From positions 690,001 to 722,000 of the forward strand of contig NC_022093.1 in NCBI RefSeq assembly GCF_000446015.1: DNA of 32,000 nt. The letters are read 5' to 3'. Below the pieces are notes generated by a model that worked only from the letters and a program-made list of their open reading frames with translations, was not told the DNA's origin and searched no databases. The stretch is from Thermofilum adornatum. Lineage in GTDB: Archaea; Thermoproteota; Thermoprotei; Thermofilales; Thermofilaceae. Every line of letters starts with the position of its first letter. Position 1 is the first letter of the stretch. A program made the position numbers and the translations under genes. Of the stretch, positions 4,432 to 23,763 are shown piece after piece.

Positions 4432-5343
4432 CTACCCACATTCACTGCCTACGCCTAAAGTTCCTAACGAGGAACATTGTCCCCCATACTCCGTCTTCAA
4501 CAACAAGTTCTCCCTCACCAGCCCCTCAATAAGCCCCACGGGGTCCTCAACCCTGCCTACCAGTGCCTCCACGGCCTCCCCATACCTCAAAGGATGAACA
4601 GCACACGTATTCAAAAGCCACGCAACAGGGTCCCCACTGACCAGCCTCGGGGGAGGCTCCGGCATATTCAAGAGCTCCACCCTACCGGAGCCCAGGACCC
4701 CCTGAAACTCCTCGTAGGCCTCCACAAGCTCCCTCTCCGTGGGCGGCTCGACAAAGGACTCCGCAGGCGTCCTTATAGGTACAGAGATATATGCTTTAGA
4801 CAGCCTCAGCCCCCTGAGAAAAGTGGCTATGTCCCTATACACCCCCTTATCCGTGTTCACGCCCCTAACAAACATTGTCTCAGAGATCAGCGTCCCCTTG
4901 TAGGATGACGAAAACTCCCTTATCCCATCTAGGACCCTCTCCAGCACCAGCGACGGGTGCGGCCTATTTATCCTCCTCCAAACCCTTTCCGACACGCTGT
5001 CAACCTTCACCGAGACAACGTCGGCCTGCTCCAAGTCCCTACACACATCCTCCATCCACAACAAGGAAGCATTGGTCAAGACAGCCACCCTGACACCAGT
5101 CTCCCCCTTAACAAACTCTATAATCCTGCCCATACAAGCGTCCAGGGTCGGCTCACCATCCGGAACAAAAGTCACATAGTCAACACTATCCCTATTCCTC
5201 GACACGAAGTCCACAACCTCTCCAGCCACGTCCCTCCAGTCATAGAAACACTTCCTCTCAACACTCAACCTAGCCGTCCGCCCAAGCTGACAATACACAC
5301 AGCTATACGTACAAGTCTTATAAGGAATATTATTAACCCCCAA
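4432..5343 (-). CDS. Radical SAM protein
   Basis: 303 aa with CTYSCVYCQ (a CxxxCxxC cluster motif), then DYVTFVPDGEPTLD and VAVLTNASLL. The track start is TTG, and conserved-looking sequence continues upstream (see findings). Confidence 0.85.
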   Translation of the reverse strand: MGVNNIPYKTCTYSCVYCQLGRTARLSVERKCFYDWRDVAGEVVDFVSRNRDSVDYVTFVPDGEPTLDACMGRIIEFVKGETGVRVAVLTNASLLWMEDVCRDLEQADVVSVKVDSVSERVWRRINRPHPSLVLERVLDGIREFSSSYKGTLISETMFVRGVNTDKGVYRDIATFLRGLRLSKAYISVPIRTPAESFVEPPTERELVEAYEEFQGVLGSGRVELLNMPEPPPRLVSGDPVAWLLNTCAVHPLRYGEAVEALVGRVEDPVGLIEGLVRENLLLKTEYGGQCSSLGTLGVGSECG

Positions 5344-5752
5344 ACTACGGCCAAGACGCCTCGAAAAAACAGGTCCAAAAACATACCCACCCGTATAAAC
5401 ACCACCATCAATAACACCATGCTAAAATTAAAACCTTCCCCTAACCCAAAAACAAGCCCTGAGAAAAGTCTCCACAGCACTCCTAGCAATACTAGTATTG
5501 ACACAGACCATTATCCTAGCCCCACAACCGCACAAGAACAACAACTGCGCGGTGCGCGGCTCGCTGGACACACAGTCATAATGGTCATAGCCAAGCATAA
5601 AGAAATCTAGCTTGTGACACATGACAAGTACTCGCCACAAACCTTATTGTAATATTTATAAATGATTACATAGTTGCAAAGAGTTCCTCTGCTTTCTTGG
5701 GCATAACATACCGCTTCATACCAAAGAGCTAAGCCTACTAGAAATGTGATTG

Positions 5753-5773
5753 ACCCCTGGATTTCTACTGGAG
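5753..5773 (-). promoter_or_regulatory. ORB-like box a
   Basis: The reverse complement reads CTCCAGTAGAAATCCAGGGGT, which is 18/21 identical to box c. It has a dyad-like core plus a G-string. Confidence 0.55.
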
Positions 5774-5840
5774 TAGAATAAAAAAGCAAGGCATAATATA
5801 TTCTCTTTTACTCTACTCACAAGTTTTTCTTTAATATAGT
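5774..5840. other. AT-rich spacer between inverted boxes a and b (candidate unwinding element)
   Basis: 67 bp with 16 G/C by hand count (24 % GC). Flanked by boxes a (- orientation) and b (+ orientation), with both G-strings distal. Confidence 0.45.
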
Positions 5841-5861
5841 TTCCACTTGAAATAGAGGGGT
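5841..5861 (+). promoter_or_regulatory. ORB-like box b
   Basis: TTCCACTTGAAATAGAGGGGT, 18/21 identical to box c. Confidence 0.55.
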
Positions 5862-5938
5862 CTGAGAAGATTATACATGCTACGGGGATTTTTCAACCGT
5901 ATAACTGTATAATGGGGATGGGAAAAGGGGTTTAAATA

Positions 5939-5959
5939 ACCCCTCTATTTCCACTGGAG
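5939..5959 (-). promoter_or_regulatory. ORB-like box c
   Basis: The reverse complement reads CTCCAGTGGAAATAGAGGGGT: a TCCAGTGGA dyad, an A-rich linker and a GGGG string. Confidence 0.6.
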
Positions 5960-6190
5960 TTTTGGAAACGGACAAGTTCGGGCTCTTTATGGTGTTATTC
6001 ACAGTCTTCATTATCTTTTTATCTTTAGTTTAGCAGAAAAATATCTGTTAAAAAAACAGAGAATTTTCCATGATTATACAGTTTCAACAATTGCTGTTGC
6101 ATCTCTGATTTCGGAACCGTAACATAATCCTATACCTCTAATGAGAGAAACGTGAGATCAAATAGCTGCGCATTGTAGATGGATTTTTTC

Positions 6191-6199
6191 TAGCGCGCT
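6191..6199. repeat. Short form of the GC palindrome (TAGCGCGCT)
   Basis: tctagcgcgcttgaa, within the origin-like spacer. Confidence 0.5.
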
Positions 6200-6294
6200 T
6201 GAAACTGCACTATGCTTTTTAGAACCGATGTATACTATACCATACAATGACCGAGCAATAACAACCCGTATCATATGAATGGAAGCAGGTAACA

Positions 6295-6687
6295 ATGTTC
6301 CGAAAATACATGAAGGAACTCAGCCCGACAATCACGAAGGGCGAGGAACCGGGAAGCGAAGACTCTCTGCGGATTATGGTGGCCAAGAACGGCGTGAGGA
6401 CACTTGCCTTGTCTTTGCTGAGGAGATTGAAGCAGGATAAAGAGGATAATCAAAGGAAATACGCCGAGTATGTCTTGGAGGTGGACATCGACCAGCCTGA
6501 GACCGCTGCGTCGCTCTCTATGAAGATCCAGGACTACGACATGGTGCCTAGTCTTGGCTGGCTAGCCGAACCGGTGATAACAACGACCAATAGTGTGAGG
6601 GAGAATGGTTTCGAACGCACGGTCGAGCTTATACTCGAGGGTATCAAGTCTTTCATAATGAGCAAGGTAAAACTCGAAAGGTTATAA
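6295..6687 (+). CDS. Hypothetical protein (orphan, adjacent to the origin-like region)
   Basis: 130 aa ORF with an ATG start and a purine-rich stretch ggaagcaggt 5-14 nt upstream. An oligo-T tract follows the stop. No family recognised. Confidence 0.5.
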   Translation: MFRKYMKELSPTITKGEEPGSEDSLRIMVAKNGVRTLALSLLRRLKQDKEDNQRKYAEYVLEVDIDQPETAASLSMKIQDYDMVPSLGWLAEPVITTTNSVRENGFERTVELILEGIKSFIMSKVKLERL

Positions 6688-6698
6688 AAACTAAATTA

Positions 6699-6704
6699 TT
6701 TTTT
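6699..6704 (+). terminator. Oligo-T tract after 6295..6687
   Basis: aaattattttttgtag lies 12 nt after the stop codon. Confidence 0.3.
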
Positions 6705-6885
6705 GTAGTAGTATTCGGCGCTCGCTGTTTCTCTAGTGTCTTAGCTTTTTCTCTTTGCTGGCTTGATTCTTGGGCTTGGCGGTGTCCTGCTCTTGGGTAT
6801 TACGGGTGGATGGTTGGGGTGCCTAGTTTTAGTATTTGTTGTCGATGTTGTATTGGCTATATATGAAACGCACTGTGTTGACGCT

Positions 6886-6895
6886 AGCGCGCGCT
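6886..6895. repeat. AGCGCGCGCT palindrome, copy 1
   Basis: gacgcTAGCGCGCGCTtagg, upstream of the second vapB. Confidence 0.7.
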
Positions 6896-6950
6896 TAGGT
6901 CTCTTGTGTATATTTTTCACGCTGAGTATTAGAAAAGGTTTTATGTATGT

Positions 6951-6970
6951 CCGTATATACGTATATACGG
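6951..6970. promoter_or_regulatory. Perfect 20-bp palindrome, candidate operator/TATA region of vapBC-2
   Basis: CCGTATATACGTATATACGG equals its own reverse complement and ends 8 nt before the vapB ATG at 6979. Confidence 0.5.
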
Positions 6971-6978
6971 GTGTCTGG

Positions 6979-7263
6979 ATGGCTAAGAGGAAGCTTACTT
7001 TGAGTGTTGAGGGTGACTTGCTAGATGAGGTTAAGGGGATTGTTGCCGTCAGGGGGAGGAGCTTGAGCAGTATCGTTGAGGAATATCTAGAATACCTGGT
7101 TTTCGAGAGGTGGGCTGAAGCTCTTAGCGAGGAGCTGGGTCTTGGCGATCTCGAGCCCACAACGGAATCAGAGATCTCGGGGGGCAGGCCTAGAGGGCTT
7201 GACGCGGCCGCTGTTGTTAGGGAATTGAGGGAGGGGAGGGTGAAGGATATTGCGGGGAGCTAA
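6979..7263 (+). CDS. vapB: RHH-type antitoxin (VapB-like)
   Basis: The track ORF 6763..7263 has an implausible hydrophobic, Cys-rich N-terminal extension. In-frame ATG 6979 gives 94 aa, MAKRKLTLSVEGDLLDEVKGIVAVRGRSLSSIVEEYLEYLV, which fits the RHH pattern. It overlaps the PIN gene. Confidence 0.75.
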   Translation: MAKRKLTLSVEGDLLDEVKGIVAVRGRSLSSIVEEYLEYLVFERWAEALSEELGLGDLEPTTESEISGGRPRGLDAAAVVRELREGRVKDIAGS

Positions 7264-7708
7264 AACTGAGAAGGTGTATTACTTGGACACAAGTGCACTG
7301 GTGAAGAGATATGTGGAGGAGCCGGGCAGCAAAATCATTGATGAGATCTATAGGGATGCGTACAAGGGTGTTGGAAAGCTGGCTTTTTCCTACTGGAACA
7401 TTGCTGAGGTTGCAGTTGTTTTGGACAAGTATGAGAGGAAGCTTGGGCTTGATGCCAGAAAGCTGCTGAGGAACCTGCTTAGTGAGTCTTCGACTCTCTC
7501 TAGGCTGCGCAGGCTTGTAGTTGTCAGTGTTAGTCCCTTAATCCTGCGGGCTTCCTTAAAGCTGGTGCTAAAGCATCACATATATGTTGCGGATGCCCTC
7601 CAGCTGGTATCAGCCAAAAGTATTGGTAACTGCACGTTTGTCACTGGTGACAGGGAGCTGGCAAGAGTGGCTGAAGCTGAGGGATTAAACACATTGTACA
7701 CAGGCTGA
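7250..7708 (+). CDS. vapC: PIN-domain ribonuclease toxin VapC
   Basis: 152 aa with YYLDTSALVKRY, IYVADALQLVSA and FVTGDRELARVA. The alternative start GTG 7274 would give MYYLDTS. Confidence 0.85.
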   Translation: MRGAKTEKVYYLDTSALVKRYVEEPGSKIIDEIYRDAYKGVGKLAFSYWNIAEVAVVLDKYERKLGLDARKLLRNLLSESSTLSRLRRLVVVSVSPLILRASLKLVLKHHIYVADALQLVSAKSIGNCTFVTGDRELARVAEAEGLNTLYTG

Positions 7709-7737
7709 GTGAAAATTGAGATCAAGCAATGTGAGAT

Positions 7738-7747
7738 AGCGCGCGCT
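7738..7747. repeat. AGCGCGCGCT palindrome, copy 2
   Basis: gtgagaTAGCGCGCGCTaagg, starting 30 nt after the vapC-2 stop. Confidence 0.7.
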
Positions 7748-8137
7748 AAGGACAGATGAGGATGGTAAAACTGAGTATGGGGTCCCGGTTCTCCTTTATT
7801 ATGAGGATGTGTGTATAGAGCCTTATGAATATTGAGCGTGTGGGTGGATGCGTGGTAGCCATTTGTTGGCGCGGGCTTGTGGTGATGTTGGTAGGGGTGG
7901 CCTGTTAAAGGCGTGCATGAGGGTCCGAAGGGGGTTGGAGGAGTTGTGTTTGCTCCCATGTTGCTGTTTAGGGTAAAGGGTTTTGGTTGGATATGTGGCT
8001 TGTCTGGGGTTTGTTGTAGGTCTGTTTGTTGCGGTAAGGATGGGGTCCAGGTTGATGGGTTCTTTGTGGCGCTGTTGCCTGTTTTCGGTTATGGGGCTGT
8101 GGCACGGTATGGGTTAAAATCTCTATGTGGGTGGTTG

Positions 8138-8689
8138 TTATATTTTTCCGAGTGCGTTTAGGAGTGCTAGAGTTAGTTGGACTATTAGTGTTGCTATGAT
8201 TGTTGCTGTGAGTGCCCATGTGACCTTTGTTGCGTGGTCTATTCGCTTGTCCAGCGCATCTATTCTTTTGTCTAGTGCGTCAATCCTTTTATCTAGACCG
8301 TCGATCCTCCTGTCCAGCGAGTCTATTCTCTTGTCTAGGTCGCCTATTCTCTCTACGAGCTGTGTGAATGCGCCCTCGAGCCTCGAGACCCTCTCTGAGA
8401 GGCCTGTGACCCTGTCTTCTAGCACTGATATCCTGGCTAGGACCTCGCTCCTCAAGGCCTCGATGCTTTCCCTAGTCTCCTTTCTCAGGGCTTCGATATC
8501 TTGCCTTGTCGCCCTTTCTAGGGCCTCTATGTCGCTCTTCGTGGCCACGTCCCTCAGGACGGCGTTTATCATTGCCAGCCTGACGTCGGGCTCGCCTACG
8601 AGGAGCTCTGCCAGCCTCTTCCTAGCCCTAGCATCGGCCTCAAAAAGCCTGACAACATCCTCGGCAGTAATCGACTGCATCCCCTTCAC
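8138..8689 (-). CDS. Coiled-coil protein with heptad tandem repeats and a C-terminal membrane anchor
   Basis: 183 aa. The long helical region carries DIEALER / DIEALRK / SIEALRS, then five LD(K/R)RID heptads, and ends in the hydrophobic tail VTWALTATIIATLIVQLTLALLNALGKI. Confidence 0.7.
   Translation of the reverse strand: MKGMQSITAEDVVRLFEADARARKRLAELLVGEPDVRLAMINAVLRDVATKSDIEALERATRQDIEALRKETRESIEALRSEVLARISVLEDRVTGLSERVSRLEGAFTQLVERIGDLDKRIDSLDRRIDGLDKRIDALDKRIDALDKRIDHATKVTWALTATIIATLIVQLTLALLNALGKI
8237..8341. repeat. 5 x 21-bp imperfect tandem repeat (coding)
   Basis: Units at 8237, 8258, 8279, 8300 and 8321. Each encodes xLD(K/R)RID on the - strand (ALDKRID, ALDKRID, GLDKRID, SLDRRID, DLDKRID). 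Confidence 0.85.
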
Positions 8690-9040
8690 CTTATAGAGCC
8701 TCTTAAGTATCTTATATAGTTTTCAGTTTCCGGAGTGTGCTCCCTGGCCAAACGCTATAAAGATAAACGTTTTCTATATGTATCCTCCAGATTTTTGGAT
8801 GGGTATCGGGGTAGCCCATGCTCTGGCGTCGCTGTGTATCCAAGCATGAGCACATAAGTGATGGAGGGGCGCGCGTTTTCTGTTAAGAGTGATATTGGTG
8901 TGCTGGAGGTGTATGTAATCTGGGTAGTCAATATTGTGTGATTTGGCTGTTTTTCGTTTTTGGTTGCTTCTTGAGTGGGTGTGTTAAATTAAGAGTTGGG
9001 GTTATATTACCCCGTAGTTGTATTATTGTTAGAGTTGTTG

Positions 9041-9433
9041 ATGGCGCCTAAGATCAAAATTGAGGATACGACGGGGTCTGGGGAGAAGATCACGTTGACT
9101 ATTGAGGGGGCGGAGATTAGCGAGAAAAGGGTGGTGCAGGTTTTGCAGATGCTTCGACTTCTCAAGTCTTCTGGCGGGGGCGTGGTTGAGGAGGGGGAGA
9201 GTATGAAGGAGAGGATTTGGAGGGTTATTGTGGAGAATTTTGGTGATGGGACGTGGTTTAGTATTCGGGACCTGTATAATGTTGCTTCCCGGGAGATGCC
9301 GGACCTGAAGGTTACGGCTGTGTCTACGTATGTTTCCCGCCTTGTCGGCGAGGGGAGGCTTGTTAAGAGGGGGTCGAAGCCGAACACGCGTTACAGGGTC
9401 CAGTCGGTTAGGCGGGAGGCGGCTTATCCATAG
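9041..9433 (+). CDS. Hypothetical protein with C-terminal winged-helix-like region
   Basis: The track ORF starts at 8996, but ATG 9041 (MAPKIKIEDTT...) follows a TATA-like ttatatta at 9003-9010. The C-terminus is SIRDLYNVA...VSTYVSRLVGEGRLVKRGSKPNTRYRV. Confidence 0.55.
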   Translation: MAPKIKIEDTTGSGEKITLTIEGAEISEKRVVQVLQMLRLLKSSGGGVVEEGESMKERIWRVIVENFGDGTWFSIRDLYNVASREMPDLKVTAVSTYVSRLVGEGRLVKRGSKPNTRYRVQSVRREAAYP

Positions 9434-9603
9434 GAGTGGTCCCGGTTTAGCGTTGTATAGGGTTCCCGTTGCGCCTTATGAGGGGGTCTTGTTGCCTTTT
9501 GGTGGCAGTTTTATGGTTATATAGTTGCATGCTTTGGATATAGAGCTTGGGGTCAGAGCGATAACTGTATATATTGTCTTTTTCGAATAATATGTAGGTA
9601 GAG

Positions 9604-10947
9604 ATGAAGAGCTTGGCGAAGCCACTTGTAGCCTTTGTCCTATTATTTTTGTCTTTGTCTCTTGTATCAAGCGTTCTCTTCAGTGCAAGTGGTAATGGTA
9701 GTTGTGGTGCGTCTAATGCACTTGAGAGGACGGGTCCTCTTAGTGTCGACTTGAGGGTTGCTGTTATTAGTAGTGATTCTGGCTTTGTGGAGGGTGTTAG
9801 GTCTGCTTTTGTGGCGAGGGACTTTAGGGTTGTTCCTGTGTCCCGTGCCTGGGAGGCTGTTGGAAAAGACCTAGTAGTTGTCGGCTGGGACGCGTTGGGC
9901 GAGCTGTCAAGATACCCGGGGCTCGTCATAGCACTGGTCAATGGCTCGAGGCTTCTGGCTGTAGCCGAGCCGGGCGTTGATGCCCTCAGGGTGCTCTTCT
10001 CTGGCATCGTCAAGCCAGTAAGGCTCGGCGAAAAGGATGAGCCAAGCGACCCCTTCGCTTTCGTACCAATGGTCGAGGAAAACGGCTACCTATACCCAGG
10101 CTGCGGCCAGAACATGGTTCTCGTGAGGGCTTTACCCATAGGGGGAGGAAAGCTGGCCGTTGAGTATTCTGCGGCGCCGCTAAGGACGAAAAGCGAGCTT
10201 GCAGGGGTAGCGTCGCTACTGGTTAAAGAGTCGTTTGTGGAGCAGCGGTCGCAACAGACAAGGCTGGAAAGTGGGGCGGGCACGTCCGGGTTCTTGTTCG
10301 ATAAGTCGCCGGCATGGGTATACATAGGAAAGTACACTAGTCCGGTGTTTGTTTTTTCTGGTGTTTTTGGAGATGCCGGAGCAACGGACTTTGAAGTTCT
10401 GGCTGGCTGGGGACAGTTTTTGACTGACAATAGTCGTGGGACGTATACGTGGGAGATCGATGTACATTATCACGGGATGGAAGGCCTAAATGGTTATAGC
10501 CCGCCTGTAAAGAATCTGCTTGGTCTCTGGGCTGTTGAGCCGAATAGTGTTGTAGTGGATGCGCTTACAGATAGGTATGGTGACCAGAGGATTAAGGATT
10601 GGGAACCTTTAGGGTCGCCCGGTAACCGCTTCGTGTTGACTATAGGGGGTTACCCAAGGGTGACCTGGGATACGGTTACCGATTTTTGTTATAGTCCCTT
10701 TTACGGCGAGAATGTTGTAAAGGGGGCTACGTGGAAGTGGGGCTTAACGGGCTATAGCTCCAAACTTTATTATGCAATGAAGAGCCAAGTGTGGATGAAC
10801 GCCGTTGGGGTCCTATACTTCAAGGTAACTATCAAGGCGAATACCTTCTTTTATGCGAACGGGCTCAGGGACGTTGCGTCTTCTGGGTGGCATGAATTCT
10901 ACTTCCGGGCGACAACGTCTCGGCTATACTTGCTGTCGACATCATAA
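9604..10947 (+). CDS. Secreted/extracellular hypothetical protein
   Basis: 447 aa. The N-terminal signal-like segment is MKSLAKPLVAFVLLFLSLSLVSSVLFSASG, and the Trp/Tyr/Gly-rich C-terminal half suggests a beta-rich fold. No family recognised. Confidence 0.65.
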   Translation: MKSLAKPLVAFVLLFLSLSLVSSVLFSASGNGSCGASNALERTGPLSVDLRVAVISSDSGFVEGVRSAFVARDFRVVPVSRAWEAVGKDLVVVGWDALGELSRYPGLVIALVNGSRLLAVAEPGVDALRVLFSGIVKPVRLGEKDEPSDPFAFVPMVEENGYLYPGCGQNMVLVRALPIGGGKLAVEYSAAPLRTKSELAGVASLLVKESFVEQRSQQTRLESGAGTSGFLFDKSPAWVYIGKYTSPVFVFSGVFGDAGATDFEVLAGWGQFLTDNSRGTYTWEIDVHYHGMEGLNGYSPPVKNLLGLWAVEPNSVVVDALTDRYGDQRIKDWEPLGSPGNRFVLTIGGYPRVTWDTVTDFCYSPFYGENVVKGATWKWGLTGYSSKLYYAMKSQVWMNAVGVLYFKVTIKANTFFYANGLRDVASSGWHEFYFRATTSRLYLLSTS

Positions 10948-11117
10948 ATATATATTCGGCTAATAGCAAACGGAAGCTTTTTCTTAGAACCTTTCAATGC
11001 CATGCGAGAGAAGTTTATACACGAGGAGGGTTTGCATGTGGTATATTTCGCATCTATGAGCCATGTCTAATATCGTAACACTTAAATATTTTATTGTATT
11101 AATTGCGTTTGGTAACA

Positions 11118-11795
11118 ATGGTTTCAGAGAGCCTCCTGGAGCAGGCGAGGAATCTTCATGGACATGTATGCCCCTACCTTGTTTTGGGCTTGAGGGCTTC
11201 TGAGATAGCTTTTGAGAGGCTGGGAATCACGCGTGTGGGGGTGGCCGAGACTATGAGAGAGGATGTTGTTGCGATAGTTGAGGCTAACAACTGCTTCGCA
11301 GACGGTGTCCAGGTGTTTACTCGTTGCACGTTTGGCAACAATTCCCTTGTTTATCTGGATACAGGAAAGACTGCTTTGACTGTGTTTAGGAGAGGCGAGA
11401 AAAGAGGGGTGAGGGTCTATGTTCTGTCTGAGAGGGTTAGAGAGCTCCTCCAGCCGGAGGTGGGTGAGCTTTGGCGTAGGGTTGTTGCTGAGAGGAGGGG
11501 GTCTAGGGAGGATGCTGAGAGGTTGCACGAAGCGTTCGAGAAGCTTGGACGTGGGATGCTTAACCTGTCGGAGGACTTCTTTAAGATCAGCGAGGTGGAG
11601 GTTGTAGAGGAGCTTGAGAGGGCGCCGATCTTTGAGAGTGTTAGGTGTGAGTCCTGTGGGGAGCTGGTGATGAAGCCTAGGGCTGTCCTTAAGGACGGGA
11701 AGTGGTTCTGCGCGTCGTGCGCGGGTGTGCCTGTACAGGCCGTGGTTGGCAGGGGTATTTCCACCGTGAAGGTTCCCTTTAGGGAGGTGAGCTAG
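11118..11795 (+). CDS. FmdE-domain protein with C-terminal zinc-ribbon
   Basis: NLHGHVCPYLVLGLRA is the FmdE-family hallmark. The C-terminus has CESCGE...CASC. The start is taken at ATG 11118 rather than the track's TTG 11103. Confidence 0.8.
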   Translation: MVSESLLEQARNLHGHVCPYLVLGLRASEIAFERLGITRVGVAETMREDVVAIVEANNCFADGVQVFTRCTFGNNSLVYLDTGKTALTVFRRGEKRGVRVYVLSERVRELLQPEVGELWRRVVAERRGSREDAERLHEAFEKLGRGMLNLSEDFFKISEVEVVEELERAPIFESVRCESCGELVMKPRAVLKDGKWFCASCAGVPVQAVVGRGISTVKVPFREVS

Positions 11796-11796
11796 G

Positions 11797-12939
11797 GTGG
11801 AGAGGAGGACCATTGCATTGGTCATTGTTCTCGTTGTAACGGTAGTGTTGCTAGGTGTTGTTGCAGTAATGGTCTTCCGGGCTCCTGGGTCGCAGGAGAC
11901 GAAGCCTCAAGCGCCCCGTGTCATAACTGTGGTTGACTTTTCTAATAGGACGGTAGAGGTGCCCGTTAATGCTTCTAGGGTCGTCGCCATTGGTCCAGGG
12001 GTGTTGCGGCTAGTTGCCTACCTTGGAGCGCTCGACAAGATTGTTGGTGTTGAGGATGCCGAGAAGAGCTGGTCGCCGCTAGGTAGGGATTACGCGATGG
12101 CGTATGGTGATGTATTTAAGAACCTGCAGGTGATAGGTCCAGGCGGGCCTAGGAATCCTCCTAACCCAGAGTTGCTTAGGAGCGTGAAGCCGGATATTGT
12201 GCTGATGTCTCGGGTGTACGTAGACGTCTACGACCCTGACAGGCTGTCGCAGGAGGTTGGAGCCCCAGTCGTGGTGATCGACTACGGCGTGGCTGGTTAC
12301 CTGAATGTCACGGAGTTTAAGCGCGCGATAACTCTGCTCGGGAGGATTCTGGGTAGGGAGGCTAGAGCGCAAGAGTTGGCCAAATACATTGACGGTGTCG
12401 TCGACGATCTTGCTCAGAGGGTCAGAGTTGCTAAGGTAGCCCCCTCGGTGTATGTTGGGGCAGTGTCGTACAAAGGTGCTCAGCCGTTTACAGGCACGCA
12501 GGGCATGTTTCCGCCTCTACAGCTCTTGAAGACGAGGAGCATAGTCGACGAGCTGGGCAAGAAGGGCTTCGTGAACGTAGACTTTGAATACATACTGAAG
12601 AAGAATCCAGAATATATCTTTATAGACCTTAATAATCTGCAGACGGTTCTGGATGACTATAAAAAGGATTCAGCGAAGTACTGTGCTCTAGGGGCGTTCA
12701 AGGAGGGCAGGGTATATGCATTGCTACCCTTCAACTATTACCACACGAACGTGGCTACAGCCCTCGTGGACGCCTACTTCATGGGGAAGGTGCTCTACCC
12801 AGAGCAGTTCAAGGACGTAGACCCAGCCAAGAAGGCGGACGAGATCTACAGGGTGTTTCTGGGGAAGCCGCTCTACGAGGAGTTCGTGAGGGGCTTCGGC
12901 AGAGGCTTTGGACCCCTAAGCGACCTCTTCAAGTGCTAG
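11797..12939 (+). CDS. ABC uptake substrate-binding protein (BtuF/FepB-type, class 8 PBP)
   Basis: 380 aa with an N-terminal membrane anchor. VVDFSNRTVEVPVNASRVVAIGPGVLRLVAYLGALDKIVGV is typical of the iron-chelate/cobalamin binding-protein family. The GTG start lies 1 nt after the FmdE stop. Confidence 0.85.
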   Translation: MERRTIALVIVLVVTVVLLGVVAVMVFRAPGSQETKPQAPRVITVVDFSNRTVEVPVNASRVVAIGPGVLRLVAYLGALDKIVGVEDAEKSWSPLGRDYAMAYGDVFKNLQVIGPGGPRNPPNPELLRSVKPDIVLMSRVYVDVYDPDRLSQEVGAPVVVIDYGVAGYLNVTEFKRAITLLGRILGREARAQELAKYIDGVVDDLAQRVRVAKVAPSVYVGAVSYKGAQPFTGTQGMFPPLQLLKTRSIVDELGKKGFVNVDFEYILKKNPEYIFIDLNNLQTVLDDYKKDSAKYCALGAFKEGRVYALLPFNYYHTNVATALVDAYFMGKVLYPEQFKDVDPAKKADEIYRVFLGKPLYEEFVRGFGRGFGPLSDLFKC

Positions 12940-12949
12940 GGGCTAGTGG

Positions 12950-13996
12950 ATGGAGCGTGGCGTCTACATTATATTTGAGAGGAAGGTTTTCCTCATAGTT
13001 GTCCTCGCTTTACTGGCTGTTGTATCTGTCCCTGTCACTGTCGCGTTTGGAACTGTGTATAAGCCATGGGAGGTGTTGGCCGGCGTCCTTCTGGGGTCTA
13101 GCGACGTTTTCCAGGCACTAGTTTTAAGGTTTAGGAGGGCCCTGGTTGCGTTACTCGTCGGCGCTCTCCTGGGTGGTGCCGGGGTGCTTACGCAGGCGTC
13201 TTTCAGGAATCAGCTTGCGTCGCCTTTCACGCTTGGTATTTCAAGTGCGTCTGCGCTCGGCGTTGCCGTTGCATTGGTGCTGGGGGTTGGCGGTAGGGGA
13301 AGTAGCTGGTTTGTGTCCTTTTCCTCTCCGTTCGTTCTTGCATTGTTTGCGTTTGCTTTTTCTATTGTTCAGACTCTGCTTGTGCTTCTCCTAGCTTGGA
13401 GGGCGGGGCTAGATCCACGGGCACTCGTCTTGGCGTCTATTTCTCTGAACTTCATGTATCAGGCTGTCTTGTACCTAGTGCAGTACCTCGTGCTTAACGA
13501 GGTTCAGCTTGCCACGGTTGTCTTCTGGACTTTTGGGGATCTTGGGAGAGCAGGCTGGCAGGAGCTGGGCGTCCTTCTTTTTGGAACCCCTGTCTTCGCC
13601 CTGGCTTACCTGGTTCTGCACAGGGATTTGGACTTGCTTGTCTTGGGCGACGACGTAGCCGAGACGTCTGGCATAAATCCGAGGCGGGCTAGGCTTATCG
13701 CCGTGATGGTGGCCGCTCTGGGCGCCGCGCTGGCAACTAGCTTTGTGGGGATACTGGCCTTTCTGTGCCTGCTGTCTCCACATGTTGCAAGGCTTTTGAT
13801 TGGTGGTAGGCATAAGTACCTGGTTTCTGGGTCCATGCTTATAGGCGCCTTGATCCTTGTGTGGGCTGACGCCGTGTCGCGGACTGTTTTGTCGCCCGTC
13901 GTTTTGCCCGTGGGGATAACCTTGTCGTTGACGGGTGCACCTTTACTGATATATCTATTGACTAGGGGTGGCGGGGTTGGCGGCTATAAGGGTTAG
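12950..13996 (+). CDS. FecCD/BtuC-family ABC permease
   Basis: 348 aa and polytopic, with FTLGISSASALGVAVAL and ILAFLCLLSPHVARLLIG motifs characteristic of FecCD transport proteins. Confidence 0.9.
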   Translation: MERGVYIIFERKVFLIVVLALLAVVSVPVTVAFGTVYKPWEVLAGVLLGSSDVFQALVLRFRRALVALLVGALLGGAGVLTQASFRNQLASPFTLGISSASALGVAVALVLGVGGRGSSWFVSFSSPFVLALFAFAFSIVQTLLVLLLAWRAGLDPRALVLASISLNFMYQAVLYLVQYLVLNEVQLATVVFWTFGDLGRAGWQELGVLLFGTPVFALAYLVLHRDLDLLVLGDDVAETSGINPRRARLIAVMVAALGAALATSFVGILAFLCLLSPHVARLLIGGRHKYLVSGSMLIGALILVWADAVSRTVLSPVVLPVGITLSLTGAPLLIYLLTRGGGVGGYKG

Positions 13997-14738
13997 AGGG
14001 GTCTCGGTTTACTTTGGAGGGTTCCAGACGCTTAGGAGTGTGGAGCTTGAGGTTGGAGAGGGGGAGTTTCTCGCCGTTATAGGGCCTAACGGGAGTGGGA
14101 AGACTACTCTGCTTAGGACAATCGTCGGCGTGCTTAGGCCCAGGGTGGGGGCTGTATACATTGATGGGAAGGAGTTGCAGGAGTACAGCAGGCTGGAGCT
14201 GGCAAGAAGGCTGGGATATGTTCCTCAAGGTTTAGAGCGACAGAAGTTTCTCACGGTTCTCGAGTTCGTGTTGACTGGGAGGAGGCCGTATATTTCCTTC
14301 GACTATGCGCGGGTCGACTACGAGAAAGCTATGGAGGCCCTCCGCAGGGTAAATGCCGAGCACTTGGCGGCGAGGACGCTAGATACACTTAGCGGTGGAG
14401 AGTTTCAGAGGGTGGTGATTGCGAGGGCTCTTGCAGGCGAGCCCGAGGTACTCGTACTGGACGAGCCTACGAGCAACTTGGATCCGAGGTTCCAGTTGGA
14501 GATAATGGATATGCTTAGGGGGCTCACGGGGGACAGAATAACTGTTGTTTCCAGCATGCATGACCTTACCCAGGCCTATAGGTACGCGGACAAGGTCGTG
14601 GCGCTTAAGGGTGGACAGATCTATGCTATGGGCAGGCCGGAGGAGGTTCTCACGGAGGACAACCTGCAAAGGATCTACGGGGTGAAGGTTAAAGTTTTTC
14701 CAGAGCACAGGGCCATTATTCTAGACAATTCTCTATAG
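13968..14738 (+). CDS. ABC ATP-binding protein (FepC/BtuD-type)
   Basis: Walker A GPNGSGKTT, signature LSGGEFQRV, Walker B VLVLDEPTSNLD and H-loop SSMHDL. Confidence 0.9.
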   Translation: MAGLAAIRVRGVSVYFGGFQTLRSVELEVGEGEFLAVIGPNGSGKTTLLRTIVGVLRPRVGAVYIDGKELQEYSRLELARRLGYVPQGLERQKFLTVLEFVLTGRRPYISFDYARVDYEKAMEALRRVNAEHLAARTLDTLSGGEFQRVVIARALAGEPEVLVLDEPTSNLDPRFQLEIMDMLRGLTGDRITVVSSMHDLTQAYRYADKVVALKGGQIYAMGRPEEVLTEDNLQRIYGVKVKVFPEHRAIILDNSL

Positions 14739-14846
14739 CATTTTCTGTTTTAAACAAGGATTTACGCATGGATTTATATGTGTTTCAGGGTAGAGTGCAT
14801 GCCCTATGTATCATCTTCCCTTAAGAAAATGATTTAGCGATATATA

Positions 14847-14856
14847 TAGCGCGCTA
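14847..14856. repeat. Short palindrome TAGCGCGCTA
   Basis: gatatataTAGCGCGCTAactagcc, in the spacer before 14892. Confidence 0.5.
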
Positions 14857-14891
14857 ACTAGCCGAACTATAGGAAGTGAGGGGGTATATCG

Positions 14892-15545
14892 ATGAGAAAA
14901 GGGGGTCTATTAAATTACATTTCTTTGTTGATGAGTTTCCTTGGCGTTCTTCTGGGCTTTTTGCCAACGATAATTTACTATGTTGCGTATTATCCGGGGC
15001 TTAAAAGTCTACACGATTCTGATGTTTACCATGGGGATTGCTTAGAGTTTTTCTGGGATGTTGTGGGCGTTAAGGGGCTGGGATCCAAGCTTCTCCCCAA
15101 TCTTTCTTCGGGACAGAAGCAACTGGTCCAGTTGATGCAGGGGCTTTGTAGGGTGTCGAAGATAAAGGTTTTGGATGAGGCCTTTTCTCATCTTGACCCG
15201 GTAAATGTCGACGCTGTGGGTAGCTATATTGCGAGGGAGCTTAAGGCGGACGTTGTCTTGTCTATCCATGTCCCAGAGGAGGCAGAGTGGCTGGGAGAGT
15301 ACTTTATTGTTTTGAGGGATGGGCGTGTCGCGTGGCGTGGGACGCTTGAAGACCTTGCGAGGGAGAATATCTACGAGGTTTATGTGAGGGGGCATGTCCC
15401 GGAGGGACTCGAGGTTGTTGCCTCTCTGGGCTATGTGGCTCTTGTTAGGGCGTCTGAGGATGTGCTTTTTGAGCTTAACAGCCGGGGCGTGATTAGGGGG
15501 TTTAGGAGGGCTGGGGTGAGGGTTTACTATGCTGGGAGGGCTTAG
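14892..15545 (+). CDS. ABC ATPase-like protein lacking the Walker A half (truncated or degenerate)
   Basis: 217 aa that keeps signature LSSGQKQLV, Walker B KVLDEAFSHLD and H-loop SIHVPEE. The first 45 aa or so are hydrophobic (LLNYISLLMSFLGVLLGFLPTIIYYVAYY), and no GxxGxGK(S/T) occurs anywhere. Confidence 0.6.
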   Translation: MRKGGLLNYISLLMSFLGVLLGFLPTIIYYVAYYPGLKSLHDSDVYHGDCLEFFWDVVGVKGLGSKLLPNLSSGQKQLVQLMQGLCRVSKIKVLDEAFSHLDPVNVDAVGSYIARELKADVVLSIHVPEEAEWLGEYFIVLRDGRVAWRGTLEDLARENIYEVYVRGHVPEGLEVVASLGYVALVRASEDVLFELNSRGVIRGFRRAGVRVYYAGRA

Positions 15546-16284
15546 GGTAGCCGTGAAGTGGTATTTTAGGGGCTTGTTTTTGCCGAGTGTTCTTGTTCCA
15601 ATGTTCCTATTGATGCTGTTGTTCTATGGCCTCCTTTATGGGTACTCGTTGGGGCTTGGGGACTCAGGGGAAAAATTTAGGGTTGTGTATTTAGTTGTTG
15701 TCCTTGCCTCGGTGTTTCTTAACCCTCTTTTTCTTGCGTCGGAAGTGGCGCACGTAGCTAGAACCCGGGATATGACGGTGTTCGAAGTGTCTATGCTTGG
15801 TTGTTGGGTCTGCGTCGCCATGGCTAGGCTGGCGGCTCTGTTGGTCTACTTGGCGCCGTACATGTTGTTCCAGGTTGTTGCTTTGTGGTTCTTTGTTCGA
15901 GGTGTGGGGGATGTGGGCCTGGAGGTTGGGCTTCTTCTTGGGCTGTCTCTGCTTTTTTATGGAGGGATAGCTGTTGTCTTGTCGCTTGGAGGTAGCAGGG
16001 TTGTGGCCGTGGTGGGTTCCTCAATGTTGACGTTTTTGTTGCCTACATCTGTCCTGATACTTGTAGGGTCGCTGACGATATATAGGGTGTCTAGCCTAGA
16101 TGTGTTTACATCTGCTGTTCTCTACTTGTTTAACGCACCTTTGAGCTATGTTGCCTCTTATCTGTATGGATTCAGGATGGCGCTTTCTTGGACGCAGGGG
16201 GCGCTTCTACTTGTCCTCGTAGATGTTTTAGTTTTTGCCATGTATGTTTATGCGTTTTCGAGGAAGCAGGAACTGAAAATATAG
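15529..16284 (+). CDS. Polytopic membrane protein (ABC-2 permease-like partner)
   Basis: 251 aa with about 6 hydrophobic spans. It overlaps the upstream ATPase-like gene by 17 nt. Confidence 0.6.
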   Translation: MLGGLRVAVKWYFRGLFLPSVLVPMFLLMLLFYGLLYGYSLGLGDSGEKFRVVYLVVVLASVFLNPLFLASEVAHVARTRDMTVFEVSMLGCWVCVAMARLAALLVYLAPYMLFQVVALWFFVRGVGDVGLEVGLLLGLSLLFYGGIAVVLSLGGSRVVAVVGSSMLTFLLPTSVLILVGSLTIYRVSSLDVFTSAVLYLFNAPLSYVASYLYGFRMALSWTQGALLLVLVDVLVFAMYVYAFSRKQELKI

Positions 16285-16706
16285 GAGCATTTCTAATTTG
16301 TTGATCTTTTGATCTTTGATCTCTGTTGCCTGTTAAATGTATTGGACAATTTTACCCTATCGAAATTATTCGGCTTAATAGTACTGCATATACTGGTTGT
16401 TTTGTCAGTGTATTTTACCTATGTAGACCGTGTTTTAGGGGTTCTGTGTATTATTTCTCTATGAAGTGCCCAAATATGGGTACTTTTAATTCATGAAACG
16501 TTACGTTTAGGGGTATCTATGAGCGCGCGATCATCGTTGCTAGAGGAAGGGGTAAACACAAGTGACAAACTCTTAGGATAAGAGGATCTCTTTATTTTAT
16601 TATACTGGCAGCCGGATTAAACAATGGTGTCATCTAATGGAATGCGAGGTGCGTAGATGTAATTTTCAGAAGAAGCTCAAGCGATTTACGGGGAAGTAGC
16701 TGGTTT

Positions 16707-17440
16707 GTGGTCCTAGTTGTCTTTGTGGGGACTTTTATTCCGCCGATAGCTACGAGGTCTTTTGACCCGTCCCAGACGGGAGAGGTGGTGCTGTATGTTC
16801 TTAGTCATTCACTTGTCCATTCCCTCGCGCCGTTTTACCCCTTGTTCAACATTGTGGCCCTGGTTCTCCTTGTGTCCCTGTGCGTATGGGGGAACAGGGT
16901 TGCCAGGGTCTTTGCATTGTATGCAGGATTAAATTATATCCTGTTTGCCTTTTTGCAGAGCGTGGCTATAACGGATAGGTATTGTGTAGAAATCGTTACG
17001 GGCAACGTCATCATTATGTTGCTGGTAGCCTTTACGTGGCTGTGGGAGGCTGTTGTCATGAAGGGCGACTACTATTTGCGTGGTGCGAGGAGGACAAGGC
17101 TCTGGGTGGTTCCGCTGGCCGTGCTTGCCTTCTGGTACCCCCTGAACCCGAGAACTCCCATGCCCGACTTCAACCCCCTCTATCTCGTTGCGGGACCTGG
17201 GGGCTGGCATTCTGCCTGATGACTCCGCTGTACCTCAGCATTCTTATACTCATGCATCCCAGGGTAAACATTGCGACTATGAGGGTTACAGGGCTGGTCG
17301 GAGCGCTAATCGGCTTCTGGAACGTGGTGGTGAACTTTCTAATGTGCCCAGCTATCCTCTGGTGGAACGGTATCCTCCACATACCCCTAGTGGTAACCTC
17401 CGGCTATGCACTCATACTCTCCTACGCCATGTACCCCTAA
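16707..17440 (+). pseudogene. Membrane protein gene split by a frameshift
   Basis: Frame A (16707..17219) ends ...NPLYLVAGPGGWHSA*. Frame B continues hydrophobic as GTWGLAFCLMTPLYLSILILMHPRVN... to 17440. One extra G in the G5 run at 17199-17203 would join them as ...VAGPGGLAFCLMTPLYL... Confidence 0.55.
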
Positions 17441-17755
17441 AGCTTAAGAATCATTTAGAAAGGGGGAACGTTCTTATAGAATTAGTCCTATGTATGGCTA
17501 TGTGTTTGATAAATGGTAATGCATGCGGTTCAGAGGTTGAGCCTTCGCGGAGTGATAGTCCTATTGTTTATGTTTTCTGACTCTGCTATGAAGGCAACTT
17601 TCCAAAGAAAAACATCAGTGATATATAAGTGATATATATATGAGAATTATTATATTATAGGATTGTGAAAACAACATGATAGCAATAGTGCTTGAGAAAG
17701 GCTCCATAGCGACGCCGAACCGCGATGTTGACATGCGCGCTGATATCAAGGTATC

Positions 17756-18673
17756 GTGGGGTGGTGGAGCGTGCAAGACGTGGTGATAGTTGATCGTGTT
17801 ACTAAGGTTTATCCTAATGGTGTGGAGGCTAATGTGGATGTTTCTTTGAGGATCTGCAGCGGGGAGATTGCTTGTGTTTTGGGTCCTAATGGTGCCGGGA
17901 AGACGACGCTTATCAGGCAGGTTATGGGGATTTTGAGGCCTACGAGGGGTAGTGTGAGGGTTTTTGGGTTGGATCCTGTGGTTCATCAGGGTGTTGTTAA
18001 GAGGAGGATTGCCTATGTTCCGCAGCTTCCTGTTTACTATCCGCACGAGACTGTTGTTGGGATTAGCGAGTTTTTTGCTAAACTGTATGGTGTTCCTCTT
18101 GGCCGCGTTAAAGAGGTCTTAGAGGCCCTCGATCTGTGGGGTATTAGGGATAGGAAGGGGGAGGGGCTTTCGCCGGGAGAGAGGAAGCTGTTACTGCTCG
18201 CGCTTGCCCTTATTAAGGGAGGCGACCTCTATGTGCTGGACGAGCCTACGGCTTTTATGGATGTCCTGAAGAAGAGGACGTCGTGGGAAATGTTGCTTGG
18301 GGAGAGGAGGGAGGGTAAAACCATGATTGTTGTTAGCCATGATGTCGAGGAGGTTAGGAGGATTTGTGACAGGATCTACATCATGTTTGGCGGCCGGCTG
18401 GTTGCAAGTATAGCGTCGCCGTCGGAGCTCAGCAGGGGGGTCGAGGTAAGGGTGTATTATGGGAGGCCGGGGGATATAGCTGATTTCTTTAGGAGGGGGG
18501 AGGTAAAGGTTTCGGAGGAGTCGCTGGTGGCGAGGTATGCCCAGCTGGCTGACGCTGTTGGGGATTTGCAGGAGTTTGCTTTGAGCCCTGTAAGTAGGGA
18601 GGCGAGGGTTTTTCTCGAGTACCCCTCTACGGAGTCTATTGTCGAGTTTCTAGGTGGTGGGAGGGGGCGTTGA
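17756..18673 (+). CDS. ABC transporter ATP-binding protein with C-terminal extension
   Basis: Walker A GPNGAGKTT, signature LSPGERKLL, Walker B LYVLDEPTAFMD and H-loop VSHDVEE, plus an extra C-terminal region of about 90 aa. Confidence 0.9.
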   Translation: MGWWSVQDVVIVDRVTKVYPNGVEANVDVSLRICSGEIACVLGPNGAGKTTLIRQVMGILRPTRGSVRVFGLDPVVHQGVVKRRIAYVPQLPVYYPHETVVGISEFFAKLYGVPLGRVKEVLEALDLWGIRDRKGEGLSPGERKLLLLALALIKGGDLYVLDEPTAFMDVLKKRTSWEMLLGERREGKTMIVVSHDVEEVRRICDRIYIMFGGRLVASIASPSELSRGVEVRVYYGRPGDIADFFRRGEVKVSEESLVARYAQLADAVGDLQEFALSPVSREARVFLEYPSTESIVEFLGGGRGR

Positions 18674-19422
18674 TGAGGCTTCGAGCACTTTTTCTTATGA
18701 TGGGCTTCTTTTTGAGGACCTACATGGAGAACTGGCTATACTTTTTAATGCTGTATTTGGTACCGCTGACTTACCTAGTTGTGGTTTTCGTGATGGCCCA
18801 GGGGAGTCTCGAGGCCCTGGCTACGGGTTTAACTGGCTTCGTTGTGATGGTTGGTTATCAGTATTTGCTCCAAACGTCGGCATCCTTCATTTCGAACATG
18901 TTTGAGCCGCAGGTGTTTGAGACTTACTACTTGATGCCCCTGTCTTTCCCGGAGATACTTGCGTCCTTCATTGCTGTGACAGTGTTCTTGATAAGTATGC
19001 CCCCGGTGGCGCTGTGCTCACTGGTATTGGCGTGGACTGTGGGCATCGTGGATGTTCCCGTATATCTGGCAGGGATAGTCTTGATGTATGCGTTCTTTGT
19101 GCCGCTGGCTGTTCTATTAGCTGTGACCGTGAAGAGGGCGATGACGCTGGGCTCTATCCTATCGTTTTCAGCGTTTGTGTTGATTATAGCGTCGCCGGTG
19201 TTCTACAGGCTTCTTTACGTCTCGGAGCCTTACAGGGCGCTGTTGCTTCTTAACCCGCTTACGCATATTGTGGTGGTTTTGAGGAGTGGCTCTGGGCTTC
19301 AGGAAGGCTTTCCAGCTGTGTCCTCTATTGCTCTTCTCACATTGATGTCTTCGGCTCTCTGGGTTCTCCTCTGGTACAAGCTTCGAGGGGGCGTATTCAC
19401 GATTATTGAGAGGAGGAGCTAA
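18670..19422 (+). CDS. ABC-2-type permease
   Basis: 250 aa and polytopic. Its start overlaps the ATPase stop (ATGA coupling). The C-terminal LNPLTHIVVVLRSG resembles the ABC-2 signature region. Confidence 0.8.
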   Translation: MMRLRALFLMMGFFLRTYMENWLYFLMLYLVPLTYLVVVFVMAQGSLEALATGLTGFVVMVGYQYLLQTSASFISNMFEPQVFETYYLMPLSFPEILASFIAVTVFLISMPPVALCSLVLAWTVGIVDVPVYLAGIVLMYAFFVPLAVLLAVTVKRAMTLGSILSFSAFVLIIASPVFYRLLYVSEPYRALLLLNPLTHIVVVLRSGSGLQEGFPAVSSIALLTLMSSALWVLLWYKLRGGVFTIIERRS

Positions 19423-19687
19423 ATCTGTTTCCCCGTTGTTGTAATGGGTCCCAGTTTGATGGATGAGTATTTTGAATGGGACTGTTCCCTGCTTGTGGTG
19501 GCTGATAAATGTGACTGAAGTTTCTGTTGTGAGTGGCTCAGTTTTTAGGCTCTAAATCACTTTTCATCCGGCTAGGAGTCATCACTGCCTATATACCCAT
19601 CAAACGTTGTAGAGAACACCAAATAAAGATTACGTGTGATTCAACCATGAGCGGGGGTCTTGTCTAAGTGGTTACGGGCTAGGCGCT

Positions 19688-19697
19688 AGCGCGCGCT
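19688..19697. repeat. AGCGCGCGCT palindrome, copy 3
   Basis: aggcgcTAGCGCGCGCTcatt, in the 450-bp convergent spacer. Confidence 0.7.
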
Positions 19698-19854
19698 CAT
19701 TCTTGCCCTGGCTCTGGCGCAGTCCTTAACCATATACGCTTTACCCTGGCACTACATACGTAACTTGGTCCTAAGCGATGACGCCCAGCCAGATTCGCCA
19801 AGTAGACCATTATACCAGCAATTTTTACCCCCCTCGTTTGGCAAAGAATTTCTA

Positions 19855-19868
19855 TTTTTTATTTTTTA
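19855..19868 (+). terminator. Double oligo-T tract on the + strand
   Basis: tctaTTTTTTaTTTTTTaag. It is T-rich only on the + strand, although the adjacent gene is on the - strand. Confidence 0.3.
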
Positions 19869-19872
19869 AGGG

Positions 19873-20511
19873 CTAGTCCCACCAGAGCATGATGTACGCT
19901 TTTCCCTTTGCTACTAGCGATTCGTACTCTTCGCATGTGAGTCTCACTTCTTTTTCCAATGTCAATATGTCGTCCCAGACCACGGGAAGCTCGTCGCATC
20001 CATATTCAACCTTGTCGAGTATTTCCTCCTCGTATTCATATTCTTCCTCGTTCCCCGCGTTCTCTGCCATTGTAGGCCATGAGAACATTTTTCCGATGAA
20101 CGGGGGCTGGACAAACATCTTCTTCCCCTCTCTTTCCACCTCGACAACGGGGAGAATCTCGTCAGGTTGTAAGAGTTGTTTTTCGAGTTTTTTGACGAGG
20201 GGTCTCACGAGCTCCTTTGCCCTGTCGATCGGGATGAGCACAGCCTCTACAATCACACATTCATCCATTAATACATTAACGAGGAAGAGGGTGCTTGGCT
20301 CCCTTTTGGCTAGCTCGACGAAGTCCTTGATGGGTGGGATGTCGTTGACCATCTCCTCCAGCTCTTCTTTTGGGATAAGCCTTGCCACCTCTACCAGCTG
20401 TTGGGCGGTTATCACGCCCTTGTAGGTCGCCCCGTTCCCACTCACATCCACGAGCTGGCTCCTAAGCGTCTCTAACACTTTCTCCGTGAAGTGCACAGAT
20501 TGGGAAGACAC
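19873..20511 (-). CDS. Hypothetical acidic protein (orphan)
   Basis: 212 aa with a GTG start. It is Glu/Asp-rich (NEEEYEYEEEILDKVEYGCDELPVVWDD). No family recognised. Confidence 0.55.
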   Translation of the reverse strand: MSSQSVHFTEKVLETLRSQLVDVSGNGATYKGVITAQQLVEVARLIPKEELEEMVNDIPPIKDFVELAKREPSTLFLVNVLMDECVIVEAVLIPIDRAKELVRPLVKKLEKQLLQPDEILPVVEVEREGKKMFVQPPFIGKMFSWPTMAENAGNEEEYEYEEEILDKVEYGCDELPVVWDDILTLEKEVRLTCEEYESLVAKGKAYIMLWWD

Positions 20512-23757: not shown

Positions 23758-23763
23758 AGTGGG

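Follow-up and report, generated by a model that had tools for sequence, protein, structure and literature searches.

In Sulfolobus, the replication origin oriC1 contains three origin recognition boxes (ORBs), of which ORB2 and ORB3 are inverted around a duplex-unwinding element (DUE), and Orc1-1 binds them as monomers, one per box, with defined polarity (PMC12141716). Origins that are not adjacent to an orc1/cdc6 gene have been documented in Aeropyrum pernix (PMC5333045), and in Thermoproteus tenax the sole conserved ORB motif lies far from the sole cdc6 gene, the authors of that work having left the origin location uncertain (PMC3189178). Here we describe three ORBs (boxes a, b and c) in a 32,000-nucleotide stretch of the chromosome of Thermofilum adornatum 1910b (NC_022093.1, positions 690,001 to 722,000; this whole stretch is called the window, and its own numbering is used throughout). 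The conserved segment of 459 bp that holds them, at 5727–6185, is in all likelihood an oriC1-class, Orc1-1-recognized origin of chromosomal replication of T. adornatum. That this region is an oriC had been the claim of the original prediction, which was made from the letters of the window and its open reading frames. It is supported by the box consensus, by the inverted outward pair at an AT-rich spacer, by synteny with T. pendens and by a strand-independent switch in skew, and as an in silico call we consider it strongly supported.

The three boxes, each 21 bp long, were confirmed at exactly the positions where they had been predicted: box a on the minus strand at 5753–5773 (CTCCAGTAGAAATCCAGGGGT), box b on the plus strand at 5841–5861 (TTCCACTTGAAATAGAGGGGT) and box c on the minus strand at 5939–5959 (CTCCAGTGGAAATAGAGGGGT), the last having the best fit of the three to the pan-archaeal consensus. 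Their layout is (−,+,−). Boxes a and b, the left and right arms of an inverted pair, have their dyad halves adjoining a 67-bp AT-rich spacer with 16 G/C and their G-strings pointing outward, distal to the spacer, in agreement with the predicted arrangement. All three boxes fit the degenerate pattern YTCCASTNGAAATNNAGGGGT. The genome-wide count of the 21-mer with three mismatches allowed, which the original prediction had offered as a check, was made here on the 32-kb window and returned three copies, namely boxes a–c, against 0.00 expected from 100 shuffles, and neither the rest of the window nor the other Thermofilaceae loci that were retrieved contain a further copy. A dispersed repeat of the miniature inverted-repeat transposable element (MITE) kind was rejected, since boxes a–c were the only copies in these sequences.

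The boxes are located in the longest non-coding gap of the window (5269/5344–6294, ~950–1026 bp), which contains no credible open reading frame, as had been noticed before. An RNA gene in the gap was also rejected: no family exceeded the threshold in an Rfam scan, and the best match, to SraG (E = 0.22), was below it. The a–b spacer (5774–5840), with 67 bp and 16 G+C (23.9%), is the candidate DUE, and an imperfect 16-nt inverted repeat is found in or at it (5771–5786 / 5803–5818). The conserved b–c spacer (5862–5938) contains copies of ATTATACA(T/G) at 5870–5878 (+) and 5905–5913 (−), and a G-rich run at 5913–5929, whose GGGG (5926–5929) pairs with the CCCC of box c to form the palindrome GGGGTTTAAATAACCCC, at 5926–5943, overlapping that box. 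Further to the right is a second AT-rich segment (5990–6091); its part at 5990–6070, already recognized in the original prediction, has 25.9% G+C versus 49.3% for the window. This segment comprises a conserved palindrome, TCTGTT-N5-AACAGA (6044–6060), and a copy of ATTATACAG (6073–6081). Altogether there are three copies of ATTATACA(G/T) in the module, two of which make an exact 11-nt inverted repeat 159 nt apart, and the ATTATACAG motif at 5870, 5905, and 6073 is kept in all T. adornatum-group lineages, as is the palindrome at 6044–6060. These non-ORB motifs may be sites for a second factor. Single-strand folding of the module merely mirrors the inverted boxes, and a bacterial promoter/terminator scan was set aside as meaningless for an archaeon.

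The limits of the core come from alignments and blastn maps of Thermofilum lineages, which show that 5727–6185 is kept as a unit and that the left and right flanks are replaced between lineages exactly at its edges. The alignment comprises 10 Thermofilum lineages with 84–99% DNA identity, the distant ones obtained from a metagenome scan for outward ORB pairs; the metagenomic lineages are 84–93% identical over the module. The proportion of invariant columns is 81–90% in the boxes (86% in box a and 90% in box b), 75% in the b–c spacer and 57–58% in the AT-rich parts (57% in the a–b spacer, the AT-richness of which is kept in all lineages). In the flanks, where different lineages have unrelated DNA, it is 22% on the left and 3% beyond 6185. 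Between strains that are 97–99% identical, boxes a and b are unchanged and box c differs at two variable spacer positions only. The sibling-strain box c, CTCCAGTGGAAACGGAGGGGT, is very close to the A. pernix box CTCCACAGGAAACGGAGGGGT reportedly described by Gaudier et al. in 2007.

The same three boxes, in the same orientation (−,+,−) and with spacings of 71 and 80 bp, are found in the syntenic gap of T. pendens Hrk5 (L231 9599–9806, corresponding to CP000505 ~487,967–488,174), upstream of the orthologue of the 130-aa gene at 9041–9433. The counterpart of box a is TGCAGTAGAAATTGAGGGG and that of box b is TCCATAGGAAGTCAAGGGG, and a 40-nt block centered on box c is near-identical in T. adornatum and T. 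pendens. In T. pendens the module is located between the gene of a T2SSE-like ATPase and the 130-aa gene. The gene order common to both species comprises, to the left of the site, the crenactin cluster, Alba, and the T2SSE-like ATPase and, to the right, the 130-aa gene, HTH-CBS, aminotransferase, Por, DUF2070, and SpoU. As far as the searchable literature shows, the T. pendens module would be an unreported candidate origin of the type species.

The box pattern is not restricted to Thermofilum. A scan with YTCCASTNGAAATNNAGGGGT against one genome per prokaryotic species matched at least 120 stretches; among the matches listed, to which the following counts refer, 117 of 120 are archaeal, from many phyla, and three are labeled bacterial. 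The free positions of the pattern are strongly biased, with G at position 8 in 104 of 134 and A at position 15 in 109 of 134, which argues for homologous sites instead of chance matches. An orc1/cdc6 gene is present in the same 8-kb block for 54 of the 120, at a median distance of 322 bp. Neighboring inverted ORBs in these loci point outward (−,+) in 29 cases and inward in six, and in five of the six inward cases the pair belongs to a (−,+,−) triple as its second half, a layout identical to that of boxes a–b–c. The spacers of the listed outward pairs have a median G+C of 0.34 versus 0.49 for their loci, the values here being 0.25 versus 0.49. With 67 bp, the a–b spacer is the shortest of 36 inverted ORB pairs tabulated (the genome-collection loci listed plus the window); metagenomic outward ORB pairs have spacers down to 55 bp. 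Three loci labeled Chloroflexia, Lachnospiraceae, and Gammaproteobacteria (L065, L090, and L109, respectively) bear the archaeal ORB pattern, L090 with an outward ORB pair, and may be mis-binned archaeal contigs.

Regarding strand composition, the original prediction had placed a flip from A+C-rich to G+T-rich at this region, which our analysis confirms: the plus strand goes from C+A-rich to G+T-rich inside the a–b module, the keto walk having its minimum at 5822 and the G−C walk at 5846. The flip also holds at third codon positions on either strand. To the left of the module, the third-position skew GC3 is negative and AT3 is positive in all six genes, on both strands, and to the right the signs are reversed in almost every gene, including the minus-strand AAA14, aminotransferase, and DUF2070 genes. 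Within this skew island, traced over the window (~1–32000), L133 (reverse complement, 1–20759) and L129 (1–20897), both measures reach 0.2–0.8 and flip at the ORBs regardless of gene strand. Gene orientation was therefore rejected as the cause of the skew, the third-position skews having the same sign on both gene strands. The direction of the switch is one that marks an origin rather than a terminus, since the strand rich in G+T runs 5′ to 3′ outward from the module. The jump in keto excess, defined as 2.5 kb to the right versus 2.5 kb to the left of the module, is 0.42–0.47 in the window and in the sibling loci L128 and L133, and does not exceed 0.10 at 11 other archaeal ORB-pair loci. Metagenomic loci of the T. 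adornatum group give 0.15–0.54, and 25 other metagenomic pairs give −0.08 to 0.16, with a median of 0.01. Compared with other archaeal ORB loci, the skew jump is 4–5 times larger; unrelated DNA in the left flank does not abolish it, and three strain-specific gene islands (see below) carry the same strong polarity as the core genes. The T. pendens site shows a weak composition switch only.

No orc1/cdc6 gene was found inside the window. The window genes are AGT35155 through AGT35189 of CP006646, by exact protein matches, and the Orc1-1-type gene AGT35192.1, two genes past the last of them, starts at window-equivalent position ~33.65 kb, which is ~1.65 kb past the right end and ~27.7 kb from box c. 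This Cdc6/Orc1 gene is at 0.72 Mb in T. adornatum 1910b (bioRxiv 10.1101/2021.04.30.439615). Hence, the earlier statement that no initiator gene is nearby is correct for the window and does not hold just beyond its right end. The DUF2070 gene (30853–32000, minus strand) runs off the window end, and in siblings it is followed by SpoU, tRNA-Glu, and the Orc1-1-type gene; the order PorB, DUF2070, SpoU, tRNA-Glu, Orc1/Cdc6 is found in strain 1505 (L129, CP007493), with which the window is collinear up to its end, and in several metagenome-assembled genomes (MAGs). The strain 1505 orthologue of AGT35192.1 (L129 13680–14873) has its top scores with S. solfataricus Cdc6-1 (2qby_A, 398 bits) and A. 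pernix ORC1 (2v1u_A, 383 bits), followed by Cdc6-3 (184 bits) and ORC2 (76 bits). The two best relatives, 2qby_A and 2v1u_A, are ORB-binding initiators.

The distance between box c and orc1-1 is ~27.7 kb in 1910b, 10.85 kb in L128-type sibling strains and ~49 kb in T. pendens. The difference between 1910b and its siblings is due to the presence in 1910b of three strain-specific gene islands, all of them between the module and orc1-1. Island 1 (6185–8807), one edge of which coincides with the edge of the conserved core, contains a 130-aa orphan, a vapBC pair, and a coiled-coil gene, and is absent from L128/L133-type strains. Island 2 (9443–20917) contains the gene of a 447-aa protein and ABC-transporter clusters, and island 3 (21551–24490) is present in 1910b and absent from sibling MAGs. 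The ±10 kb around orc1-1 contain no ORB in any of the Thermofilaceae genomes covered, namely those of T. adornatum-group strains, T. pendens, Infirmifilum sp. NZ, and one MAG of a Thermofilum sp. The original prediction had regarded the neighborhood as the unusual part of this locus, a view that we do not share: orc1-1 is linked at 10.9–27.7 kb, and non-adjacency is common in surveys and documented elsewhere. An orc1 gene is adjacent to the ORB in 15 of 25 evaluable genome matches listed and in two of 12 metagenomic short-spacer ORB pairs whose flanks are 2.5 kb or longer. Because of these frequencies and the precedents of A. pernix and T. tenax, the neighborhood is no strong anomaly, and it is in part an effect of where the window ends.

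If the module works as Sulfolobus oriC1 and A. pernix Ori1 do, ATP-bound Orc1-1 monomers, supplied in trans, would bind each ORB with fixed polarity. Their binding would distort the DNA, MCM would be recruited onto the AT-rich spacer, and two forks would depart in opposite directions. In such a scheme, box c, together with the conserved motifs on its right side, would probably be an auxiliary loading or regulatory part.

Several observations weigh against the assignment of the module as the oriC, or limit its reach. The initiator gene is not adjacent to the module, so that the usual supporting cue is gone, and the archaeal share of the listed YTCCASTNGAAATNNAGGGGT matches could partly reflect the scan order of the collection. 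Further ORB clusters, or origins of another kind, may be present in the genome, and the module may thus be neither the only nor the dominant origin. The skew is also limited in extent: it fades ~12–15 kb leftward of the module, and rightward past DUF2070, that is, after ~12 kb in island-free strains and ~26 kb in 1910b. In strain 1505, the locus L149, which is 125–145 kb below the start of L129 and ~130 kb from the origin position inferred for this strain (just left of L129), has no skew (pooled GC3 −0.01, AT3 +0.06). A replichore-wide skew is thus unsupported by this remote locus. Of the earlier reading of the skew flip as an origin mark, the flip at the module stands, as a local feature fading within ~12–26 kb. 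The composition switch is strong local support for a site of fixed-direction replication, and not a demonstrated genome-wide extremum.

The skew being local and other origins being possible, the main alternative to an active oriC is a conserved but dormant or minor origin, to which Orc1-1 binds but which seldom fires, most replication starting from other origins or independently of origins. The fading of the skew within ~12–26 kb and its absence ~130 kb from the inferred strain 1505 origin position would fit such a situation, as would the facts that crenarchaea often have 2–4 origins and that dormant ones are known in Haloferax mediterranei (PMC5333045, PMC4595724), and the presence of at least one further full Orc1/Cdc6 gene in T. 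adornatum (bioRxiv 10.1101/2021.04.30.439615). However, the skew is very strong, does not depend on gene strand and changes sign precisely at the module, which speaks for an origin that fires often and in a fixed direction, and among archaeal origin types the oriC1/Orc1-1 pair is the one conserved most widely (PMC12141716). We therefore consider a dormant origin improbable, though less so than the other alternatives.

A use of the boxes outside replication, as operators for the divergent neighbors under the control of an Orc1/Cdc6 paralogue or some other factor, appears very improbable. Orc1 paralogues can indeed regulate transcription, as Sulfolobus Orc1-2 does (PMC9738581), the boxes are in a divergent intergenic region, and single ORB-like matches without a neighboring orc1 are frequent; however, an inverted pair around an AT-rich spacer and a skew switch are features of an origin, and the replacement of the neighboring genes between lineages, with the 459-bp core kept, indicates that the module is not tied to a particular regulated gene. 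Least probable of all, and hardly to be expected, is that the boxes are a captured origin of an extrachromosomal element or a mobile repeat, and the skew island the footprint of a former small replicon. Such capture has been proposed for Sulfolobus and Aeropyrum (PMC4010727), and the skew domain is local, roughly symmetric and flanked by DNA rich in vapBC pairs and strain-specific islands. Nevertheless, housekeeping genes (Por, aminotransferase, Alba, and, nearby, crenactin) are located in the domain and have the same order in T. pendens, and lineages with another sequence as left flank also show the skew. Neither an integrase, nor a notable PHROG match, nor genes typical of such elements were found in Pfam, NCBIfam, and PHROGs scans; there was no match to plasmids, and the eight matches in a viral collection were estimated to be near chance. 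In addition, the boxes are of the chromosomal oriC1 type and are linked to an Orc1-1 gene.

An active oriC remains the preferred reading, and it differs from what has been published for the genus. Ori-Finder2 predicted four origins in T. adornatum, the sequences of which are given in supplementary note 1 of the chromosome conformation capture sequencing (3C-seq) preprint (bioRxiv 10.1101/2021.04.30.439615). These four "origins" are the 16S rRNA gene and three gaps containing tRNA genes, and none of them contains boxes a–c. The "ORB motifs" reported in them are tRNA arms, the match to "Sulfolobaceae ORB motif 1" being the sequence of a tRNA T-arm, and "Origin 3" is the tRNA-Glu gap beside orc1-1 (L129 13340–13679). 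For T. pendens, too, the DoriC entry is described via a tRNA-like sequence (PMC4009838). In the literature searched we found no other origin predictions for T. adornatum, no paper reporting the module of boxes a–c, and no experimentally mapped Thermofilum origin. With an offset taken from the matching coordinates of "Origin 3", boxes a–c would be at ~695.75–695.96 kb of CP006646.

Among the neighboring genes, the one at 9041–9433 (plus strand) encodes a 130-aa protein found in Thermofilaceae only. Rightward of the module, it is invariably the first gene that is conserved, both in T. adornatum strains and in T. pendens. The C-terminal half of its product is predicted to be a winged helix (predicted local distance difference test (pLDDT) ~88–92), for which Foldseek retrieves generic winged-helix regulators only, and no Pfam, NCBIfam, or PHROG family was found for it. 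The protein could be a lineage-specific origin-associated factor. The orphan of island 1, also of 130 aa (6295–6687, plus strand), has seven relatives among 1.84 billion representative proteins and no family; it adjoins the core in most T. adornatum-group lineages and is absent from L128-type strains. To the left of the gap is a radical SAM gene (4432–5343), the product of which is 100% identical to N186_04010. Its counterpart in sibling MAGs (L128 1311–2139; L133 6110–6938) is split into 76 aa and 201–212 aa and is probably a pseudogene. A linkage between radical SAM genes and ORBs was rejected as not conserved, a 77%-identical homologue (L006) having no ORB nearby. The crenactin/arcadin-like cluster, with an actin-family gene, an SMC_N protein, Alba, and the T2SSE-like ATPase (L133 14452–20759; L231 1–9521), is directly to the left of the module in T. 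pendens and ~9–15 kb to the left in T. adornatum, with accessory genes in between. At 26014–26112 (minus strand), ARAGORN reports a "tRNA-???" of 99 nt whose anticodon has four bases; it is likewise conserved in L128 and L129 and is probably an intron-containing archaeal tRNA.

A testable origin is now available for both T. adornatum and T. pendens, where the published predictions that we found point to tRNA or rRNA sequence. In the 3C study of T. adornatum, which uses a shifted map, the origin would be at ~0.496 Mb, which would alter how the position of the origin is read against the contact map. The distances of 10.9, 27.7, and 49 kb form a natural series between module and initiator, in which linkage decays by gene-island insertion and rearrangement. 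Of all features of the locus, only the very strong, local, origin-centered strand asymmetry merits attention by itself. A tentative idea, which we judge rather unlikely, is that this extreme skew island results from a genuine mutational process limited to DNA near the origin. It might arise from long-lived single-stranded DNA (ssDNA) on the lagging-strand template near a constantly firing origin, generated by helicase run-ahead or abortive initiation bubbles and subject to fast cytosine deamination at 80–90 °C; or fork direction might be fixed only near the origin, the rest of the chromosome being copied from variable or origin-independent starts. If either were true, the island would offer a rare chance to read the replication dynamics of a hyperthermophile from sequence.

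In summary, a canonical Orc1-1/ORB origin has very probably been newly located here for Thermofilum, with its initiator gene some distance away. The module resembles oriC1 of Sulfolobus (Saccharolobus) in having three ORBs, two of them inverted around an AT-rich DUE in an ORB–DUE–ORB unit of ~110–130 bp, an ORB core of the TCCAGTGGAAA type with a G-string, and a linked initiator closest to Cdc6-1 (PMC12141716). It also resembles Ori1 (oriC1) of A. pernix, which is bound by ORC1/Cdc6-1 and in which canonical ORBs flank an AT-rich region, and A. pernix likewise has no cdc6 gene adjoining its origins (PMC5333045, PMC8287685). Unlike T. adornatum, A. pernix Ori1 has four ORBs, two per side, and it has been validated by biochemistry and 2D gels, whereas the T. 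adornatum module is known from its analysis in silico. Finally, T. tenax, which belongs to the same order-level group as Thermofilum, also has an ORB distant from cdc6 (PMC3189178); unlike in T. tenax, the Thermofilum ORB module is loosely linked to orc1-1, at 11–49 kb, and its site is marked by a sharp local skew switch.

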